Assembly: GCA_965204735.1 (NCBI GenBank)
Contig: OZ242008.1
Coordinates: 904,191 to 968,190, forward strand
Length of the DNA stretch: 64,000 nt
Source of the DNA: Longimicrobiales bacterium
GTDB taxonomy: Bacteria > Gemmatimonadota > Gemmatimonadetes > Longimicrobiales > Gaopeijiaceae
Direction of reading: 5' to 3'
Shown here: positions 2,776 through 10,770 of the stretch, piece after piece
Layout of the letters: each line of letters starts with the position of its first letter
Numbering within the stretch: position 1 is the first letter of the stretch
Position numbers and translations under genes: made by a program
Notes under the pieces: generated by a model
Seen by the model: the letters and a program-made list of their open reading frames with translations, nothing else
Told to the model about the DNA's origin: nothing
Databases searched by the model: none

Positions 2776-3417
2776 ATGAAGTCTTGGACCCAAGCCCCGG
2801 CGGCATCCGTCGCCCTCGCGATCGTCGCTGCGGTCGCGGTCGCAGCCGGCTTCGCGCCCAGCGCCTTCGCCCAGACCCGGGTCCTCGGCCCAGCGGACGG
2901 CCACGACCTGCCCGCCACCGATCTGGAGCGCGTGGCCGTGGGCGCCGAGGCCCCGCTCTTCGCCTTGGAGTCCTTCGGCGGCGGGACCGTCGCCCTGGCG
3001 GAGTACCGAGGCGTGAAGAACGTCGTTCTCGTCTTCTACCGCGGGCACTGGTGACCCTGGTGCGCCCGTCAGCTCGGCGAGCTGAGAGACCTCTTGCCCC
3101 CGCACCTGACGGCGGAAACCGAGATCGTGACGGTTTCGGTGGACGACCAGGAGAAGCAGCAGATGATGATCGACAGGATCGTGGCGGAAGGCGGCGCGGT
3201 CCCGGACTTCACCATGCTCTCCGACCCGGACCACCGCGTGATCGACCGCTACGGCCTCTTCAACCCCGACTCGCGTCCGAACCGACCGGTTCCCCATCCA
3301 GCGACCTACGTGATCGACAAGGAGGGGATCGTGCGGTGGGGGTTCGTCGAGGTGGACTACCGGCTGCGGCCCTCCAACGAGGACGTCTTGGCGGCCCTGC
3401 AGGCCCTGGCAGGCTAG
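2776..3417 (+). CDS. Peroxiredoxin-like (AhpC/TSA, PRX_like2-type) thiol:disulfide oxidoreductase, predicted selenoprotein with in-frame UGA at 3052-3054
   Basis: ORFs 2680..3054 and 3094..3417 are in the same frame. The junction reads 'VLVFYRGHW-[UGA]-PWCARQLGEL', matching the family motif FYRGxWCPxC with UGA at the first Cys. The N-terminal signal peptide is 'MKSWTQAPAASVALAIVAAVAVAAGFAPSAFA'. The downstream part, 'TVSVDD...HPATYVIDKEGIVRW', completes a thioredoxin fold. Confidence 0.7.
3069..3085 (+). promoter_or_regulatory. Candidate bacterial SECIS hairpin
   Basis: The sequence tcagctc-ggc-gagctga forms a 7-bp stem with a G-containing apical loop. The stem begins 15 nt after the UGA at 3052-3054. 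It is short and I have not tested it against a SECIS model. Confidence 0.35.
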
Positions 3418-3449: not shown

Positions 3450-3589
3450 CCGCTTTCCCAACGAAAAATGCGGGGTTCGCCAGCGGAAAAAAAATAGTCC
3501 CAACGAGACATGGGAACGCCCATCGGGGGGTATTAAACTCGGGTCACGCGGATCGAAGGCCCACCTTCCACCCATCCCGAGTCCTCCAG

Positions 3590-4258
3590 ATGAACCCTCC
3601 TCGTTGGCTCGCGCCTGGTCCTGCGCGGCGCTCTCTCCCCTCTCGGGGACGCAGCCGCCGGGCCGCAGCTCTGTCGATACTCCTCGCGACGCCGCTGACG
3701 GCGGCCGCCGCGGGGTTCATGGCAGCCGACCCGATGCGCTTGAGCCGCGCGGCAGCGCGGGCGCAGGTGATGGTCCTTGGGGGGACCTACGAAGGACGAG
3801 AAGGGGTGATCCTGCAGTCGGGGATGAACGACTGCGGACCGGCTGCGCTGGCGAACGTGCTGAAGGTCCTCGACATCGACGCGACTTCTCTGGATTCCCT
3901 GGAAGCGCTGGCCGGCACGGGTCCAGAGGGAACCTTGGCGAGCGGCCTCGTCCGCGCCGCCGCGGCGTTCGGCCTCCAGCTCGCCCTGACGCGAGTCGAA
4001 TGGGAGCGGCGGGGGCAGGTGCCGACGCCGTTCATCGCGTGGGTTCACGAGAGCCACTTCGTCGCCGTGACGGAACGGACCCAGGGCCGCTTCACGGTCT
4101 TGGATCCCCAGATGGGCCGCTACTCGATCGACGAATCCGCGTTCCGGTCGATCTGGACCGGGCAAGCGATCGTCCTTGCCCACCCGCCCAGAACTGCCGC
4201 GGCGACGCACGTCGCGGTCCCCCGATCCCCCGATTCTCGGGAGGAGGAAGCATCATGA
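3590..4258 (+). CDS. Peptidase C39 (bacteriocin-processing cysteine protease) domain protein, standalone, with N-terminal signal/anchor
   Basis: It has 'QSGMNDCGPAALANVL' (catalytic Cys context), 'WVHESHFVAVTE' (catalytic His context) and 'VLDPQMG'. The N-terminal hydrophobic segment is 'AAALSILLATPLTAAAAGFMA'. No ABC transporter domain is fused. The stop overlaps the next start as ATGA at 4255-4258. Confidence 0.8.
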   Translation: MNPPRWLAPGPARRSLPSRGRSRRAAALSILLATPLTAAAAGFMAADPMRLSRAAARAQVMVLGGTYEGREGVILQSGMNDCGPAALANVLKVLDIDATSLDSLEALAGTGPEGTLASGLVRAAAAFGLQLALTRVEWERRGQVPTPFIAWVHESHFVAVTERTQGRFTVLDPQMGRYSIDESAFRSIWTGQAIVLAHPPRTAAATHVAVPRSPDSREEEAS

Positions 4259-4551
4259 GCAAGTCTCGCGCTCTCGTTCTCGCCCTGTCCCTTTCGGTTG
4301 GCCTAGCCGGGATGAACGCAGGGCTTCCCGCAGGCGCCGCCGAAGCTGCACCCACCAGCGTCACGGCCTCGCCAGACACCCTGTCGGTCGCCGAAGCTCC
4401 GATCCCGACCGCTGTCGACGTGATGGGCAGCGGCCGCTGGTGGGGAAAGGCTTGGCGGCTGGCCAAGTGCGTCGGTCTCGGGATCCTCACCGGGCTTGTC
4501 AACCCAGCGTACAGCGGCGTCAAGTTCATGACCTGCTACTTCAGCGCCTGA
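4255..4551 (+). CDS. Precursor peptide P1 (signal-like N-terminus, Pro/Ala spacer, GSG motif, cationic/hydrophobic 2-Cys core)
   Basis: The RBS gggaggagga lies upstream. The peptide reads 'MSKSRALVLALSLSVGLAGMNAG...VDVMGSG|RWWGKAWRLAKCVGLGILTGLVNPAYSGVKFMTCYFSA'. It is paralogous to P2-P4. Confidence 0.6.
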   Translation: MSKSRALVLALSLSVGLAGMNAGLPAGAAEAAPTSVTASPDTLSVAEAPIPTAVDVMGSGRWWGKAWRLAKCVGLGILTGLVNPAYSGVKFMTCYFSA

Positions 4552-4642
4552 CTCGCTGCCGTCCCTTCGTCCGGGCTAAGCGTGCCGCGACAACCAAGTG
4601 TCGAGGCATTCCCACTCAACCCGTCTTCTCGGGAGGAACACC

Positions 4643-4936
4643 ATGAAGAAGTCCCGCAGACTCGTCTTCGTCCTGGCTCTTTCGACCGGACTCCTCGGCA
4701 TGAACGCTGGACCTCCAGGCGCACTGCCGGCGCGCCCGGGTGCCGACGCCCCGTCGGCCATGCTCGGGGCTGTTCCGACCCCAGTCACCGACGCCCTCGA
4801 CATCGCGGGCAGCGGCACGAAATGGAAGAGGTGGGCGTGCTGGACATGCTTCGGCGTCGGCGTTGCCGTCACCATGAGCCCCTTCGCAATAGTGGGCGCC
4901 CTCATCCTTGTCGGATGCGGAAAGGCGTGCTTCTAG
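4643..4936 (+). CDS. Precursor peptide P2 (GSG motif, 4-Cys hydrophobic core)
   Basis: The RBS gggagg lies upstream. The peptide reads 'MKKSRRLVFVLALSTGLLGMNAG...LDIAGSG|TKWKRWACWTCFGVGVAVTMSPFAIVGALILVGCGKACF'. It shares the upstream 'tctcgggagga' with P1. Confidence 0.6.
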   Translation: MKKSRRLVFVLALSTGLLGMNAGPPGALPARPGADAPSAMLGAVPTPVTDALDIAGSGTKWKRWACWTCFGVGVAVTMSPFAIVGALILVGCGKACF

Positions 4937-4978
4937 CCTAGCACACTCTCTGCCCCCTGCTCGCTACCCTCTGGCTGG

Positions 4979-4999
4979 CCGCGGCGACCTGCGCCGCGG
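4979..4999 (+). other. GC-rich hairpin between P2 and P3
   Basis: The sequence ccgcggcg-acctg-cgccgcgg forms an 8-bp stem with a 5-nt loop. No T tract follows. Confidence 0.25.
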
Positions 5000-5037
5000 A
5001 CTTCATTCGCTCATCTACCCACATCGGGAGACATGTC

Positions 5038-5331
5038 ATGAACAATTCTCGTTCTCGCACGGTCGTTCTCGCCCTCGCTCTCTCGCTCGGCCTCTCCGCA
5101 CCGGGCGCCACCCTGTCTTCGCCGTCGCCAAGCACGAGTCCTACGTCGGCCACGGTCGCCGATGTCCAGGGCGCAGGCTGGGGTGCAATCCTGGCCTGTG
5201 CGGGCTGTGTTGCCGGAGCCGTCGCCCTCATCGCGTCGGGTGGGAGCGCGGTCGCTGCGGCGCTCTCCGTCCGAGGGTCGTCGCTCGCTGCCGCAGTATG
5301 CGTCGCCGCCTGCGTCGAAGCGTTGAGGTAG
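5038..5331 (+). CDS. Precursor peptide P3 (GAG motif, 4-Cys Gly/Ala-rich core)
   Basis: The peptide reads 'MNNSRSRTVVLALALSLGLSAPG...VADVQGAG|WGAILACAGCVAGAVALIASGGSAVAAALSVRGSSLAAAVCVAACVEALR'. Confidence 0.6.
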   Translation: MNNSRSRTVVLALALSLGLSAPGATLSSPSPSTSPTSATVADVQGAGWGAILACAGCVAGAVALIASGGSAVAAALSVRGSSLAAAVCVAACVEALR

Positions 5332-5371
5332 CAGGCTTCCTTCCTCACCCCAAAACCAAAGGACACTAGCC

Positions 5372-5665
5372 GTGAGATACACAACACTTCGCCTGGCGGT
5401 GGCACTGCTGGCAGCCTTGTCCCTCGCCCAGTCCACAGCGACAGGCTACGTGCCGGTCGAACCGGCGGCAACAGACGTTCGTCCCGCACCGCTCGCAACG
5501 GCGGAAGGCGGCCTCGTCGGAGCTGGCTGGTTCTCTACGGCCGTCTGCATCGGATGCATAGCAGGGGCCTTAGTCACCGGCGGAGCCAGCATCGCCGGAC
5601 TAGTCCTGTGGGTGGCGGCGCATCCCATAATCACAGGGTTCTGCATCGGAGCCTGCGTAGCCTGA
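5372..5665 (+). CDS. Precursor peptide P4 (GAG motif, 4-Cys hydrophobic core; GTG start)
   Basis: The RBS aaagga lies 8 nt upstream of GTG 5372. The peptide reads 'MRYTTLRLAVALLAALSLAQS...GGLVGAG|WFSTAVCIGCIAGALVTGGASIAGLVLWVAAHPIITGFCIGACVA'. Confidence 0.6.
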   Translation: MRYTTLRLAVALLAALSLAQSTATGYVPVEPAATDVRPAPLATAEGGLVGAGWFSTAVCIGCIAGALVTGGASIAGLVLWVAAHPIITGFCIGACVA

Positions 5666-5682
5666 CGCCCGTCGGCTCGTTG

Positions 5683-5713
5683 GCCCGGGCGCGTCGAGTC
5701 GATGCGCCCGGGC
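5683..5713 (+). terminator. Strong GC hairpin after the last precursor gene (possible partial terminator/attenuator)
   Basis: The sequence gcccgggcgc-gtcgagtcgat-gcgcccgggc forms a perfect 10-bp stem with an 11-nt loop, 18 nt after the P4 stop. It is followed by 'cttctcccc', so there is no real U tract. Confidence 0.4.
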
Positions 5714-5738
5714 CTTCTCCCCCCAACCACGAGCGAAC

Positions 5739-6302
5739 ATGACGTTCTCGACTTCCCCCGCAAAGAAGAAGGCGATGGCCGCGGTCTCGGCGGCTGGCGC
5801 CCTCGCTCTCGCCGGGGCCCCCTTTCTGCTGCTGGACGCACCCGGAACCACAAGAGGACCGCCCGAGCCCCCCTGGTCCTTTCCGGCCGTCGCGGCGCAG
5901 GGCCTGCAGGGCCATCGCTGGAGCTCTACGGCCGACTTGGCTCGGCCGGCCGCTCTCATGTACGTCGACGAAGCGTGCGTTCACTGCAAGGCGGAGCTGC
6001 GCACCTGGGAATCGCTGGCTCCACGGGCCGACGGGGCGGAACTCTGGATCGTCGCTTCGCCGTCTTCGGACACGCGACAGGCTTCCTGGGCGCCGAGCTC
6101 GCTCCGAGGTCGCGTGCTCAGCGACGCCGACGGAAGCGTCGCGAGGGCACTGAACGTGAAGGCCGTGCCGGTCACCTTTTGGATCGATGCGACCGACACC
6201 GTGCGGTTCGTGCATGTCGGACGCAGCCCACGCCAGCGAATCGCGGAAACCATGCAGTCGATCGCCCGGACTGCACCAGCGCTGGAGACTCGTCCGAAAT
6301 GA
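5739..6302 (+). CDS. TlpA/thioredoxin-like thiol:disulfide oxidoreductase, membrane-anchored or exported
   Basis: It has the CxxC motif 'YVDEACVHCKAEL' and an N-terminal hydrophobic segment 'AAVSAAGALALAGAPFLLL'. The thioredoxin-fold tail reads 'AVPVTFWIDATDTVRFVHVG'. Confidence 0.7.
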   Translation: MTFSTSPAKKKAMAAVSAAGALALAGAPFLLLDAPGTTRGPPEPPWSFPAVAAQGLQGHRWSSTADLARPAALMYVDEACVHCKAELRTWESLAPRADGAELWIVASPSSDTRQASWAPSSLRGRVLSDADGSVARALNVKAVPVTFWIDATDTVRFVHVGRSPRQRIAETMQSIARTAPALETRPK

Positions 6303-6949
6303 CCGACGCGAGTTCGCGGAGCCTTTCCGCGGTCAAGAGGTTTCCCGGCCACTTGGTCCCGGGCATGGACGACATCCGCGCCCACAAGCCCATCCTGGCG
6401 CCCGTCGTCGCGGGGTGGCTCCTTGCCTTCGCCTCGGCCTGGTCCCTTTGGCCTTTCATGACGAGCGCGCTGCCCCCCGAGCAGATCGACGCCGTAGGCG
6501 TGCTGTTCTGGGGATCGGCCGTGCTGGCTCCCTTCTTGATGCTGGCGAAGGCCGGCGTGCTGGCCGTCGTGGGCTGGGCAGTCCTGATTCTGTCCAACTC
6601 AGACCGGCGCCTGCGTTCTCTATACTCGATTCTGCTGTACGGCGAGGCCGTTCTGGCGGCCCAGGGCGTCTTCGCGGCAATCTTGCTGCGGGCGACCACC
6701 GACGGCGCGCCACACTCTCCGGAAGACCTCAAGGCCGCCTTGGGGCTCGCGGCGCTGGCGCCTGCGTCCAGTCCGGTCTTGCAGGCCATGGCCAGCGGCC
6801 TTACGCTGCTGCATGTTGCTTGGTACGCCTTCCTGTATGTCTGCTTTCGACGAGCGCTCGATCTGGGGCGGCTTCCGGCGTGCGCGCTGGCTGCGCTGTT
6901 CTGGCTCGCGCTGCTGGGGTTTGCAGTCGCAGGAGCTTCGTTCCTCTAA
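6299..6949 (+). CDS. Polytopic membrane protein (Yip1-domain-like), candidate immunity/accessory protein
   Basis: The ATG overlaps the upstream stop as ATGA at 6299-6302. Several hydrophobic helices are visible (e.g. 'ILAPVVAGWLLAFASAWSLWPF', 'GVLAVVGWAVLILS', 'ACALAALFWLALLGFAVAGASFL'). Confidence 0.5.
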   Translation: MTDASSRSLSAVKRFPGHLVPGMDDIRAHKPILAPVVAGWLLAFASAWSLWPFMTSALPPEQIDAVGVLFWGSAVLAPFLMLAKAGVLAVVGWAVLILSNSDRRLRSLYSILLYGEAVLAAQGVFAAILLRATTDGAPHSPEDLKAALGLAALAPASSPVLQAMASGLTLLHVAWYAFLYVCFRRALDLGRLPACALAALFWLALLGFAVAGASFL

Positions 6950-6971
6950 CCAGCTGAGCTGATCGCGATCA

Positions 6972-7697
6972 ATGGTGAGCCTGAAGGAACTCAGCGTTCA
7001 GTATCCCAACTTCCGCCTTGAACCACTGAGTCTCGAATTCAGCGCTGGAGAGAAGGTCGCTCTGGTGGGCGCCAACGGCGCCGGCAAGAGCACCACGCTG
7101 AAGGCCATCGCCGGCCGATCCAGGGAGTACGAGGGCGCCGTGGAGATCCGCGGCCGGGAGGTGCGTTCCCAGCTCCCGGAGATCCGCACGAAGATCGGAT
7201 TCCTCCCGGAACGCCTCCTGGGGTTCGGGTGGATGTCGGTGGAGGAGCACTTGGCCTTCCTCTCCAACTTCTTTCCGACCTGGGACCACGGCTACGCGAG
7301 GGATCTCCTCCGCCGTCTCGACCTGCCTTCCGGCTCCAAGGTCGGCACGCTCTCGAAGGGGATGGCCGTAAAGCTCTCATTGGTCGCGGCCGAGGCGTTT
7401 CGTCCGCCCATCCTCATTCTCGACGAGCCTACGTCCGGCATCGACCCGCTCATGCGCGGCGAGCTGCTGGAAGTGGTCAATGAAGCGGTGCCCGACGGAC
7501 ACGACCGCTTGGTTCTATTCTCGAGCCACATCCTCGAAGACATCGAGCAGGTCTCGGACCGGGTGGTCATGTTGCGCCAGGGCAAGCTGGTAGGCGACAC
7601 CACCATTGCCGACCTTCGCGCCCGCGACCCGGAATCTTCCGTCTCCCAACTCCTCTACTCCGCACTGGCGTCCGATGAACCAACATCACCTGCGTAG
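6972..7697 (+). CDS. ABC transporter ATP-binding protein
   Basis: Walker A is 'GANGAGKST', the signature is 'LSKGMAVKLSL', Walker B is 'ILILDEPTSGIDP' and the H-loop is 'SSHIL'. Confidence 0.9.
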   Translation: MVSLKELSVQYPNFRLEPLSLEFSAGEKVALVGANGAGKSTTLKAIAGRSREYEGAVEIRGREVRSQLPEIRTKIGFLPERLLGFGWMSVEEHLAFLSNFFPTWDHGYARDLLRRLDLPSGSKVGTLSKGMAVKLSLVAAEAFRPPILILDEPTSGIDPLMRGELLEVVNEAVPDGHDRLVLFSSHILEDIEQVSDRVVMLRQGKLVGDTTIADLRARDPESSVSQLLYSALASDEPTSPA

Positions 7698-8382
7698 CCT
7701 TCTCCGGGTCGAGCTCCGTCGCAACCGCAGACACATCCTCGTAGGGCTCGGCCTAGCGGCTGCGGCTGTTCCGGTGCTGAGCCTCTTCGACCGCGCCGAC
7801 CCTTCGCCCCTGGGCGCTGTGTTGCTTGTGGCCACGATGAGCAGTGGTATTGGAGTCGTGGGCAACACGTTCAGGGACAAGTTCAACGGGCAACTCGAGT
7901 TTCTTACGACACTCCCGGTGCGCAGCAGCACTCTCGCCGCTGCCGTTTTCCTGGCAAATGCGCTGGCGTTCCTTCCCGTCCTTGCAGTTGCCACGGGCGT
8001 CGTGCACTGGGCGCTCTTGCCGAAGCTGGGTGTCGACGCCGGGGGCTGGTCGTGGGGCGCAGCTGCGGCAAGCTGGCTCCTTGTTTCGGCGTTCGCAGGC
8101 CTGAGCTGTGGGATGGTAGTACGCTTCGACATCAACAAGCTCAGTCTCGTGCCAGCTGCGGGGGTCGTCGTGGGTGTCCTGGGCGGCGATCACATCGATG
8201 GATGGGTGCGTGCCAAGGCACCGGCCGTCCTCGAGCTCGCGGCCGCCAGTGCCGACATGGCCTGGGTTCTTGGCGCGGCCGCCTTCTTTCTGCTCTTCGG
8301 CACGATGCTAGGCGCCGGCTTCTTCGTGGCTTGCCAAGGCTATGAGCGCTACCGGCCCAAGCCCGACGTCCTCGAGTGGTGA
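7675..8382 (+). CDS. ABC-2-type transporter permease (membrane component)
   Basis: It is a hydrophobic polytopic protein immediately following and overlapping the ATPase gene. The start at ATG 7675 ('MNQHHLRSLL') was chosen within ORF 7606..8382. Confidence 0.6.
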   Translation: MNQHHLRSLLRVELRRNRRHILVGLGLAAAAVPVLSLFDRADPSPLGAVLLVATMSSGIGVVGNTFRDKFNGQLEFLTTLPVRSSTLAAAVFLANALAFLPVLAVATGVVHWALLPKLGVDAGGWSWGAAAASWLLVSAFAGLSCGMVVRFDINKLSLVPAAGVVVGVLGGDHIDGWVRAKAPAVLELAAASADMAWVLGAAAFFLLFGTMLGAGFFVACQGYERYRPKPDVLEW

Positions 8383-8403: not shown

Positions 8404-10770
8404 CTACGGGCCCGGGAACGGCTCCTGCGCCGGCGTCCGACGCCAGGAGGTCAGCCCGGGAAGGGCGGCCAGCGCCGTCGTGCCTGCCACCAGCGTGCCG
8501 AGGATCACCGCCGCGCCGAAGCGCCGCGTGGGCGGAAAGTCGGAGAGGGCGAAGATTCCGAATCCGGCGACGATCACCGCGCACGCCGTCGCAATGGGCT
8601 TGGCCAAGTCGTCGCGGGCAGTGCGCCACGGGCCGCCTGGCCGCGCCGAGCCGCCGCCCAGGCGATGCACTCGCGTCACGAGGTGGATCATGGAGTCCAC
8701 ACCCATCGCCAGCGCCACGTTGGCCGCCGGCGACGTGACGATGTCCACGGCCACGCGCGCGTGCCCAAAGGCACCGAGGACGATTGCGGGAACGGCGGCC
8801 AAGCAGGCCAGCATCGCCGCGGCCGTCGCCATCGAACGGGAAACGAGAAAGCCTACCAGCAGAAAGAGACCGAGCAGGCCCCCCAGGCCCACCTTGAGGC
8901 TTCCGGCGACCAGCTTGCCCAGCCTGTCCTGCAGGTCGTACAGCCCCCCAGTGGCACTCACCGCCAGTCCGGCTCTCTCCGCCCGGCCCGCCAACCGCTC
9001 GACCACCGCCTCCCTGGGCTCCGTCCTGCCGCCCTCGATCATGCGCACCGAGTAGAGCGCCTCCCTTCGGTCTTCGCTCACGAACCCCCTGGCGATTCCG
9101 CCGAACTCGGGGCGCTCCAGGAATCCGATCAGCAGGGAGACCGGCAGGAAGTTCGCAAGCGGAAAGGTTCGGGCGTGGGCCAGGATCGGCGCCGGCGACA
9201 GCACGATGCCCGTGGCCGAGTCCGCTTCCAACGACTCCTGAAGGCGCCACATCCGACGGTAGCCCTCGTCGTTGTCGAGCCTCTCGTCGTCGGAGGACCT
9301 TACTGCAAGCAGCAGTGGACTGCTCCCTCCTTCCCGGTCGACGGCTTCGAGCCCAGGACGGATCGGCCCTCCGGAGTCGAAGTAGCTCAAGAGCCCCGGG
9401 TCCGTGTTCAGGCGGAACACTCCCGTGCCGACGAGGACCGCGAGAACTCCCATGGCGGCCAGAGGGAAAGGTCCAGGAAGGGACCACCCGGGAGGGCGTC
9501 GGCCGGTCGGCCGTTCCAACGCGTACAGGAGCGCTGGTCCCGACCCGACCCGCGCCCATGCGGGAAGGCGCCGGCCGGTCGGAGGTTCCAACCCGTCGAC
9601 GTCGTCCGCGACCGGCGCGTCCCGCCTCGTCGCCTCCGCCCGCCCCGCCGCTTCGGCCCGCCTCGTCGCGCTCGCCAGCCACCCCGGCAGCACCGCGAAC
9701 GCGCACGCCAGCGCAACCACCGTGCCCATTGCGCCTGCCGTTCCCAGCTCGCGCAACGGCTTCGCCGAGGCTGCCCACAGACTGACGAACCCCGCAAGGG
9801 TCGTGGCCATGCACCACAGCGAAGGCTTGATCGTCCGAGCCGCCGCCCGGCTCGCAGGGCACGAGGCCGATCCGGCGTCGGCATCCGGTCCGTCCCGGCT
9901 TTCGGCCCGGGCGCCCATCTCCCGACGCCACGCTGCCGTCAGGAAGACCGTGTGCGACAGCGTCAGCACGAAGGCGATCGTGACGATGTTCGCCGTCAGG
10001 AGCCCGATCCCGACGCCGGCGACCGCGGTGGCCAGCAGCGTCCCGGCGCAGGCGCAGATGCAGGACAGCATCGTGCCCGCGACGAGCCGGGCGTCTCGGT
10101 ACGCAATGGCGGCGACGAGCCCGAAGACCAGGAGCGCGGCTGCGCTGAAGACGCCCAGGTCCCGCGCGAGTCCCCGGCGGATCAGCTCCACGATCACCGG
10201 AACTCCCGACGCGAGAAGGCGGAACTCCCCGCGCTCGTGCTCGTCCAGCGCCGCTTCGATCTGCCGCGTCAGGGCCGCCGCGTCCGCTCCGTCCACCTGC
10301 AGTACCAAGTTCGTCGCGCCGGCAGGCGTCGCAGGGCCGCCTTCCTCGACGCCCCTCCTGCCCGACGGAACGAGCACGCGGCTCCACAGCGGGCTGGTCG
10401 GGTCCTGATTGGCCACGGAGAAGACTTCGCCGACGCCCGGAAGTCCTTCCAGCGCATCGCCCAGCGCAGCCACCCGATCCGCGTAGAGGGCTGCGCCGAC
10501 GTCCGGCGCCTCGGCCCGCACGATCACCAGCTCGCCGCCCCCCGAGTACCGCTCGGTCAGCTCCCGCGACTCGCGCAGCTGCGGGTCGCCGGGGGCGAAG
10601 AAGAAGTCCGCCTCCACCTGCGGAGCCAAGTCCACGCGAAGGACGACTCCGGCGACCAGCGTCGCCGCAACCACGACCGACGCAACCGGCGCAAGCCGTG
10701 GAAGTCGACGCCAGACCCACGGCAGCGGGCTCGACTGGGACCGGACGAACCGGGACACGGTGTCGACCAT
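8404..10770 (-). CDS. MMPL/RND-superfamily membrane transporter
   Basis: This is a 788-aa protein with two blocks of about 6 TM helices separated by soluble loops, the layout typical of MMPL/HpnN-like transporters. I recognised it by overall architecture only. Confidence 0.7.
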   Translation of the reverse strand: MVDTVSRFVRSQSSPLPWVWRRLPRLAPVASVVVAATLVAGVVLRVDLAPQVEADFFFAPGDPQLRESRELTERYSGGGELVIVRAEAPDVGAALYADRVAALGDALEGLPGVGEVFSVANQDPTSPLWSRVLVPSGRRGVEEGGPATPAGATNLVLQVDGADAAALTRQIEAALDEHERGEFRLLASGVPVIVELIRRGLARDLGVFSAAALLVFGLVAAIAYRDARLVAGTMLSCICACAGTLLATAVAGVGIGLLTANIVTIAFVLTLSHTVFLTAAWRREMGARAESRDGPDADAGSASCPASRAAARTIKPSLWCMATTLAGFVSLWAASAKPLRELGTAGAMGTVVALACAFAVLPGWLASATRRAEAAGRAEATRRDAPVADDVDGLEPPTGRRLPAWARVGSGPALLYALERPTGRRPPGWSLPGPFPLAAMGVLAVLVGTGVFRLNTDPGLLSYFDSGGPIRPGLEAVDREGGSSPLLLAVRSSDDERLDNDEGYRRMWRLQESLEADSATGIVLSPAPILAHARTFPLANFLPVSLLIGFLERPEFGGIARGFVSEDRREALYSVRMIEGGRTEPREAVVERLAGRAERAGLAVSATGGLYDLQDRLGKLVAGSLKVGLGGLLGLFLLVGFLVSRSMATAAAMLACLAAVPAIVLGAFGHARVAVDIVTSPAANVALAMGVDSMIHLVTRVHRLGGGSARPGGPWRTARDDLAKPIATACAVIVAGFGIFALSDFPPTRRFGAAVILGTLVAGTTALAALPGLTSWRRTPAQEPFPGP

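Follow-up and report, generated by a model that had tools for sequence, protein, structure and literature searches.

The 64,000-nucleotide stretch of contig OZ242008.1 from a Longimicrobiales bacterium that we analysed, hereafter the window (GC ~68%), carries nine genes in the same orientation (+ strand) at positions 3590-8382. They encode a standalone C39 cysteine peptidase of 222 amino acids (aa) (3590-4258); four precursor peptides, P1 (98 aa, 4255-4551), P2 (97 aa, 4643-4936), P3 (97 aa, 5038-5331) and P4 (97 aa, GTG start, 5372-5665); a membrane-anchored thioredoxin-fold thiol:disulfide oxidoreductase with a CVHC active site (187 aa, 5739-6302); a membrane protein with five transmembrane (TM) segments (216 aa, 6299-6949); an ABC ATPase (241 aa, 6972-7697); and an ABC-2-like permease (235 aa, ~6 TM segments, most likely 7675-8382). 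The first-pass annotation of this DNA had described a bacteriocin-like locus in which exported peptides would be cleaved by an exported C39 peptidase. Inspection of the sequence bore out the gene arrangement from which it started: the C39 and P1 genes share an ATGA overlap (TGA of C39 with ATG of P1, 4255-4258), and each peptide gene has its own purine-rich ribosome-binding site (GGAGGAGG, GGGAGGAA, GGGAGA and AAAGGA for P1 to P4, in that order). An ATGA overlap also joins the thioredoxin-fold gene to the 5-TM gene. A tblastn search of the remaining window with the peptide set revealed no extra copies, an Rfam search of the whole window gave no match, and a generic terminator scan returned only terminator-like hairpins at chance level, inside genes. 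The nearest genome relatives are two metagenome-assembled Longimicrobiales (Gemmatimonadota) genomes, whose C39 peptidases are 72% and 69% identical to that of the window.

The same cassette is present in ~16 other loci, two distinct genomic neighbourhoods among them, carried by Longimicrobiales-type Gemmatimonadota and metagenome relatives. The order C39, peptides, thioredoxin-fold protein, 5-TM protein, ABC ATPase and permease is the same at every locus of sufficient length, at identities from 86% down to ~30% and also in unrelated neighbourhoods; since the whole arrangement recurs in independent loci, it is not a product of chance. Other surroundings are found at L016/L018, L070/L071 and L073 (our locus numbers), which indicates that the cassette is a self-contained unit. 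P1 to P4 are real genes, as judged from dN/dS values of 0.33-0.67 against their orthologues at locus L008. The peptide genes are always linked to a C39 gene, a thioredoxin-fold gene and the membrane protein gene, which answers the concern in the first-pass annotation that they might belong to housekeeping envelope families unlinked to C39 genes.

The window peptidase matches Pfam Peptidase_C39 (PF03412) with an E-value of 3.9e-25 (88.6 bits, cut-off 22), residues 72-198 covering profile positions 3-130 of 133. Residues Q76, C82 (in NDCGPAAL), H156 (in SHFVAV) and D172 align with the peptidase domains of ComA and PCAT1, identified as sequence matches in the PDB, and are invariant in 19 C39 homologues; the Cys and His contexts are those originally reported. 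Fusion to an ABC exporter is never seen among the family members (158-261 aa), and the NCBIfam models for PCAT, the exporters with a built-in C39 domain, align with the peptidase part only (55 bits versus a cut-off of 853). The ATGA coupling to the first peptide gene was found in eight lineages. The C-terminal half of the peptidase bears a weak resemblance to FilB (9.5e-06).

C39 domains usually function in the cytoplasm. The N-terminus of the window peptidase is Arg-rich and contains a hydrophobic segment at approximately residues 25-46, and in 19 of 19 homologues the Lys plus Arg count is 3-8 before the ~19-residue hydrophobic segment and 2-4 after it. Because this Arg cluster precedes the hydrophobic segment, the positive-inside rule argues for an extracytoplasmic catalytic domain, with the N-terminus predicted to be an N-in anchor or a twin-arginine/Sec-like signal. 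The N-in/C-out layout predicted in all 19 homologues is in line with the standalone, exported enzyme proposed in the first-pass annotation, and with its extracytoplasmic route. Such a location would have a precedent in FapD, a C39 protease from the Fap functional-amyloid operon of Pseudomonas that is exported through Sec and works in the periplasm (PMC5557850). The NCBIfam FapD model (NF058616; C39_FapD) did not match the window peptidase at E<=0.1, and no Fap-like genes were present in any of the examined loci.

We then compared the precursors, of which 49 sequences from 13 loci were collected. P1 to P4 are 28-41% identical to one another. A common plan applies to 48 of the 49 sequences: a basic N-terminus with a 10-14-residue hydrophobic stretch, a spacer rich in Pro, Ala, Thr and Ser, a short motif, and a hydrophobic core of 30-54 aa. 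In these 48 precursors position -4 of the motif is always V, I or L and position -2 always G; 38 of them (79%) have A, S or G at position -1, and position +1 is G in 33 and Q in 14. Some of this regularity was built into the search pattern; even so, 48 of the 49 precursors have a match precisely where leader and core meet. Many precursors read VVGG-Q, VIGG-Q or VVGA-Q (VVGGQ, VIGGQ, VVGAQ), which corresponds to the classical double-glycine register (-4/-2/-1). This register makes a cut at G-[S/A]↓G more likely in the window peptides than the cleavage after G-x-G that the first-pass annotation had proposed. The predicted cut site would be preceded by 39-79 residues, the leaders starting with a basic n-region followed by an h-region of 10-14 residues.

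Read in this way, P1 has a Sec-like signal, a spacer, the motif DVMGS↓G and a cationic core of 39 aa (charge +5) with two Cys; P2 has DIAGS↓G and a 40-aa core (charge +4) with CWTC and CGKAC; P3 has DVQGA↓G and a Gly/Ala-rich 51-aa core with CAGC and CVAAC; and P4 has GLVGA↓G and a 46-aa core with CIGC and CIGAC. The motifs (GSG, GSG, GAG, GAG), the paired Cys patterns of P2 to P4 and the pair of single Cys in P1 agree with the first-pass annotation. Across the 48 cores, 38 contain CxxC...CxxxC, nine contain two Cys and one lacks Cys altogether. The number of diverging paralogues per genome is 2-6. At locus L001 the leaders of three tandem paralogues share 88-93% identity (93-95% for the DNA) and their cores only 35-47%, with the break at GSG; this split between conserved leader and variable core is a signature of leader/core precursor families. 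Orthologous cores, in turn, are strongly conserved (e.g. GGxSIxGL...C...C). Orthologues of P3 were found in nearly every locus, those of P2 at L001, L002 and L008, and those of P1 are the sequences P0029, P0034, P0036, P0037 and P0041.

An AlphaFold2 model of P4 comprises a signal helix (residues 2-23), a disordered spacer (23-50) and core helices at 52-70, 74-83 and 85-96. This three-helix structured core (predicted local distance difference test, pLDDT, 72-81) begins directly after the motif, and in its geometry the model would allow CxxC and CxxxC to be next to each other. A Foldseek search of the model against the PDB gave no significant match. The peptide family is small (17 matches in a database of 5.8 billion proteins), and P1 to P4 matched nothing in Pfam or NCBIfam even at E=10, save a sub-threshold DUF6153 match for P2 that we took as compositional. 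A GlyGly-CTERM/PEP-CTERM-type sorting signal was rejected, as there is no passenger domain and only a disordered spacer lies ahead of the motif. At 8467-8692 of locus L010, two open reading frames (ORFs) of 36 aa are bare cores without signal or leader (e.g. MLWITCLAYAGFTSLSPIAGVGAIYACTRAVLDTWG), and may be decayed or mis-started precursor genes.

The thioredoxin-fold protein matches Pfam AhpC-TSA (1.4e-07, 31.9 bits, cut-off 26) and Redoxin, DsbE/ResA-like models in NCBIfam, and DsbE/CcmG-type proteins in the PDB. Its hydrophobic segment (residues 12-34) follows KKK, the layout of an N-in anchor, and the CVHC site and an AVP loop (cis-Pro) are conserved in homologues. In all cassette homologues the active site is C-x-[H/Y/F]-C, represented by CVHC, CIHC, CLHC, CYHC, CPHC, CVYC, CPYC, CAHC and CAFC, and the reductant-type C-x-P-C dipeptide is absent among them. 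The earlier label "TlpA-like" therefore holds for the fold, which is of TlpA/DsbE type, and not for the active-site dipeptide, which is instead like those of DsbA, DsbC and PDI. With dipeptides unlike those of CxPC reductases, an oxidase or isomerase role is plausible.

The 5-TM protein, which the first-pass annotation had simply called polytopic, did not match Pfam even at E=10. A full HMMER search gave a family of 81 representatives, of which 65 were scanned; 16 of these match Pfam Yip1 (PF04893), the best at 4.9e-17, and relatives at 1e-21 to 1e-33 from the query match Yip1 positions 10-171 of 173 just below the cut-off. Its assignment as a divergent Yip1-domain protein rests on this transitive homology. 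It is encoded in every complete cassette. A DsbB/VKOR-like role was rejected because it has no conserved Cys, and an AlphaFold2 model from a seven-sequence alignment (pLDDT 47) was not used. In Bacillus subtilis the ABC transporter YknXYZ protects cells from SDP, a 42-aa disulfide-containing peptide toxin, and needs YknW, a member of the Yip1 family, to do so (PMC4887032); by analogy the 5-TM protein is a putative immunity or transporter-accessory component.

The adjoining ATPase (Pfam ABC_tran, 1.1e-26) is of the DrrA/PmtA/GldA type, its best NCBIfam match being PmtA (5.2e-41), followed by GldA, DrrA and lantibiotic-protection ATPases. The permease was recognised from its hydropathy, with six hydrophobic segments, and from weak ABC2_membrane matches. 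Together they have the layout of an ABC-2 exporter, with a separate ABC_tran ATPase and a ~6-TM permease. No protein of the cassette diverges faster than the permease (27-67% identity to other loci versus 58-86% for the ATPase), as would be expected if it tracks the peptide substrates.

Comparison of two otherwise equal loci revealed a clean 555-bp deletion at L071 (position 5282) relative to L070 (2330-2884). Missing at L071 are the C39 3' end, peptide 1 and the leader region of peptide 2, and the thioredoxin-fold, Yip1-like, ABC and permease genes are retained at 99.7% identity to L070. Such a pattern, toxin lost and immunity kept, is the one expected of a producer turned resistant non-producer; both loci come from assemblies, and the deletion may be an assembly artefact. 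The GC content at third codon positions (GC3) is 0.67-0.82 in the cassette genes versus 0.85-0.93 in the flanks (O-acetylhomoserine sulfhydrylase, peroxiredoxin, MMPL and M28 genes), which, despite the conserved synteny, points to different codon usage or an older foreign origin. The MMPL/RND gene among these flanks (HAE3/HpnN-like, 8404-10770, - strand) is convergent with the cassette and abuts the permease gene.

Ahead of the C39 gene lies a block of ~45 nt (3497-3539, + strand) whose conservation extends over 11 loci, including those with a different gene upstream. It contains a dyad, GTCCCA-N8-TGGGA (3497-3515), a -35-like TGGGAA (3511-3516), a 17-nt spacer and a -10-like TAAACT (3534-3539), with the invariant columns TCCCA...ATG..A.CGC.C...TA...T, and on this basis it probably holds a promoter and an operator. 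The -10 element originally suggested, tattaa at 3531-3536, overlaps the conserved hexamer TAAACT by 3 nt and is replaced by it. A generic sigma-70 promoter scan called no promoter, this block included, and a sigma-54 promoter was rejected because the -12 element is absent. We also observed that the non-coding region 3497-3575 is more conserved than the proteins and includes, in close relatives, the 5' untranslated stretch CACGCGGATCGAAGGCCCAC; this region gave no match in Rfam.

Directly upstream of the cassette region is a gene for a signal-peptide-bearing AhpC/TSA peroxiredoxin (2776-3417, + strand). It has an in-frame TGA (3052-3054) at the position of the peroxidatic Cys (FYRGHW-TGA-PWC, a U-x-x-C motif), followed 14 nt downstream by the hairpin TCAGCTCG-GC/TG-GAGCTGA. 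TGA and hairpin are invariant, synonymous positions included, in nine loci (the window, L001, L003, L004, L008, L010, L011, L013 and L014). The gene, which gene callers split into two ORFs, probably encodes a selenocysteine peroxiredoxin with a selenocysteine insertion sequence (SECIS) element.

Taken together, these features suggest the following pathway, to which we give even odds as a whole. The operon would be transcribed from its own promoter/operator, as its conservation implies, and the 97-98-aa precursors would be exported via their N-terminal Sec-type signal peptides. The C39 peptidase, anchored in the inner membrane through its N-terminal segment and with its Q/C/H/D domain facing the periplasm (as motif and topology predict), would cut the exported pro-peptides at [V/I/L]-x-G-[A/S/G]↓[G/Q] and free cores of 30-54 aa. 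The anchored thioredoxin-fold protein would then form or isomerise disulfides from the N-proximal CxxC to the C-terminal CxxxC, stapling the helical bundle. We infer the export, cleavage and stapling steps from sequence logic and conservation. Self-protection, in which the Yip1-like protein and the ABC-2 transporter would expel membrane-active peptides from the inner membrane of the producer, is proposed by analogy with YknW and YknXYZ acting against SDP, and also with Pmt and LanFEG. The mature peptides would most likely be a multi-peptide, membrane-active bacteriocin or a cannibalism-type toxin set; this last step, also drawn by analogy, is the least certain.

Several observations weigh against this pathway, and a number of them favour instead a reading in which the peptides stay in the inner membrane as small resident proteins and serve a housekeeping function in the envelope, for example in thiol/redox or metal handling via periplasm-facing CxxC and CxxxC. 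Here C39 would merely be a maturation protease, the thioredoxin-fold protein would service the cysteines, and Yip1/ABC would aid insertion or quality control. Most Longimicrobiales-type loci share a fixed position between the peroxiredoxin and M28 peptidase genes, a scan of viral contigs for the C39 family found none, and the locus looks vertically inherited rather than strain-variable; such a clade-wide position and synteny would suit a resident protein. So would the purifying selection on the strongly conserved orthologous cores, each of the four peptides having a dN/dS value (given above) lower than 1. In hydrophobicity the cores resemble TM segments, and they are hydrophobic enough that they may stop in the Sec translocon, and the products may therefore stay in the inner membrane; no outer-membrane export component is encoded by the cassette or its neighbours, and the MMPL/RND gene adjoins it only in the closest relatives (L001, L002, L008), not in distant cassettes. 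The selenocysteine peroxiredoxin candidate is a redox neighbour, and proteins of TlpA/DsbE fold are usually reductants; the thioredoxin-fold protein could instead keep the single catalytic Cys of C39 reduced. Further points against the proposed pathway are that 10 of the 48 precursors have R, T, N or Q at -1, which is unusual for C39 substrates, that locus L010 lacks the ABC transporter pair, and that signal-peptide and topology predictions rely on hydropathy and charge rules. Resident housekeeping proteins, however, would hardly explain 2-6 diverging paralogues per genome with conserved leader and variable core, cores with two Cys or none, cassettes outside the peroxiredoxin/M28 neighbourhood, a deletion variant that drops peptides and retains the remaining cassette, or the cationic, Trp-rich N-termini of the P1 and P2 cores, which are typical of membrane-active toxins. 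We regard this reading as the main rival, unlikely without being negligible.

Three other explanations appear much less probable. If the hydrophobic stretches were not export signals, C39 would cut inside the cell, its usual site of action and that of the matched PCAT structures, and the ABC-2 transporter, whose ATPase is closest to PmtA, would export the cores as Pmt does phenol-soluble modulins. This is improbable given the Arg cluster N-terminal to the hydrophobic segment in 19 of 19 C39 homologues, the Sec n/h/c layout of the precursor N-termini (h-regions of 10-14 residues), the likewise N-in anchored thioredoxin-fold partner and the cassette without any ABC transporter at L010; FapD, moreover, shows that a C39 protease can function in the periplasm. 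Streptococcal C39s process double-glycine pheromones, and ComA is matched by the window peptidase; the products might accordingly be secreted signalling peptides of ComC/BlpC type instead of toxins. At none of the loci does the cassette contain or adjoin a gene for a histidine kinase or response regulator, the cores (30-54 aa, very hydrophobic, mostly with four Cys) are unlike known pheromones, and a dedicated ABC-2/Yip1 pair suits protection more than sensing, so that we give this option very little weight. The same slight probability attaches to the biogenesis of a fibre or surface structure of Fap/Fil type, with a periplasmic C39 maturing the subunits: FapD is such a protease and the C-terminal half of the window peptidase is weakly FilB-like (9.5e-06), whereas C39_FapD is not matched at E<=0.1, FapF-like pores, ushers and Q/N-rich repeat subunits are absent, the peptides match no Pfam or NCBIfam family, and the P4 core is helical and hydrophobic in the AlphaFold2 model.

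Returning to the pathway of Sec export, periplasmic C39 cleavage and disulfide stapling, a literature search found no description of the cassette, and its combination of features is undescribed, though a periplasmic C39 has FapD as a precedent. If the pathway is true, removal of a double-glycine leader is uncoupled from ABC export and relocated to the periplasm, which would be a first among bacteriocin-like systems, and bacteria with two membranes have a new way of producing bacteriocin-like peptides. Genome-mining rules that demand a PCAT, or that reject candidates with signal peptides, would overlook such loci. The cassette would also provide a defined substrate for an exported C39, a class otherwise known only from FapD, whose targets are unclear, and it draws attention to a family of hydrophobic, Cys-stapled peptides within Gemmatimonadota that is as yet untapped. 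To our knowledge, almost no natural products have been characterised from this phylum, which is abundant in soil and sediment. The anchored leader protease, dedicated oxidoreductase and Yip1/ABC-2 protection could possibly serve as a compact toolkit for periplasmic peptide production.

In the metagenome scan we also observed other, unrelated lineages of standalone C39 (L032, L049, L051, L069; L047, L054, L063; L057, L059; and L030) with N-terminal hydrophobic segments. They adjoin small Sec-signal ORFs bearing a V-x-G-[G/A]-type motif, such as "...PVVSGAKAISQTEKADVTGRCGCP...KPGYGFGTTGHYGPPGQGF..." and "...AADFTGGGTLIIAGSTTALVLLIVLLVILL"; these small ORFs had no Pfam or NCBIfam match. Exported C39s and substrates exported through Sec may thus form pairs in a wider class, a hint that the theme is not confined to the cassette. 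Tentatively, and with somewhat less than even confidence, we propose a general, hitherto undescribed Sec-dependent route of double-glycine maturation by anchored C39s in the periplasm of diderm bacteria, for precursors with both a Sec signal and a GG-type site, which here would give a new class of disulfide-stapled helical bacteriocins oxidised by a dedicated Dsb-like protein and countered by Yip1/ABC-2 immunity.

The thioredoxin-fold protein may be likened to PedC/PapC of pediocin-type class IIa operons, where a thioredoxin-like CxxC protein is likewise encoded with 4-Cys precursors; PedC is a dedicated oxidoreductase for the 4-Cys bacteriocin pediocin and improves correct disulfide formation (PMC4919988). 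PedC differs in acting beside a PCAT in a Gram-positive host, and the likeness is one of role. In the SDP/YknWXYZ system, to which we liken the cassette, operon factors cut a hydrophobic disulfide peptide of ~40 aa from an exported precursor, and producer protection by an ABC transporter that needs a Yip1-family membrane protein (PMC4887032) would be shared as well, as proposed here. The precursor SdpC is reported to be Sec-dependent (Perez Morales et al. 2013). In contrast to the cassette, SDP is processed by SdpAB rather than a C39, a single peptide arises from a 203-aa precursor in a monoderm host, and YknYZ is of MacB type with a membrane-fusion protein.

FapD shares with the window peptidase a standalone C39 domain, an export signal and, as predicted here, periplasmic action on proteins from its own operon that leave the cytoplasm through Sec. 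Membership of the NCBIfam FapD family is not detectable for the window C39, and there is no FapF pore in the cassette. The substrates of FapD are amyloid subunits or the pore, with unclear cleavage sites, whereas those proposed for the cassette are short peptides, hydrophobic and rich in Cys, in which the double-glycine-type site is clear.

Further parallels are the double-glycine bacteriocins and class II microcins processed by PCAT/AMS transporters (ComA, LagD, CvaB, PCAT1). These share the C39 Q/C/H/D set, the motif (hydrophobic -4, Gly -2, Gly/Ala/Ser -1), tandem paralogous peptides that are GxxxG-rich and partly cationic, and transporter genes in the operon. There, C39 is the cytoplasmic N-terminal domain of an ABC exporter, whereas here it is separate, anchored and predicted to face the periplasm; leaders there are short and lack a Sec signal, whereas here Sec-type signals and 39-79 residues precede the site; and the ABC transporter here is of ABC-2 type (DrrA/PmtA-like), without a membrane-fusion protein or TolC-like partner. 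Judged by its sequence features, the cassette thus resembles a double-glycine bacteriocin system, yet its unfused C39 and Sec-signal leaders set it outside the PCAT family.

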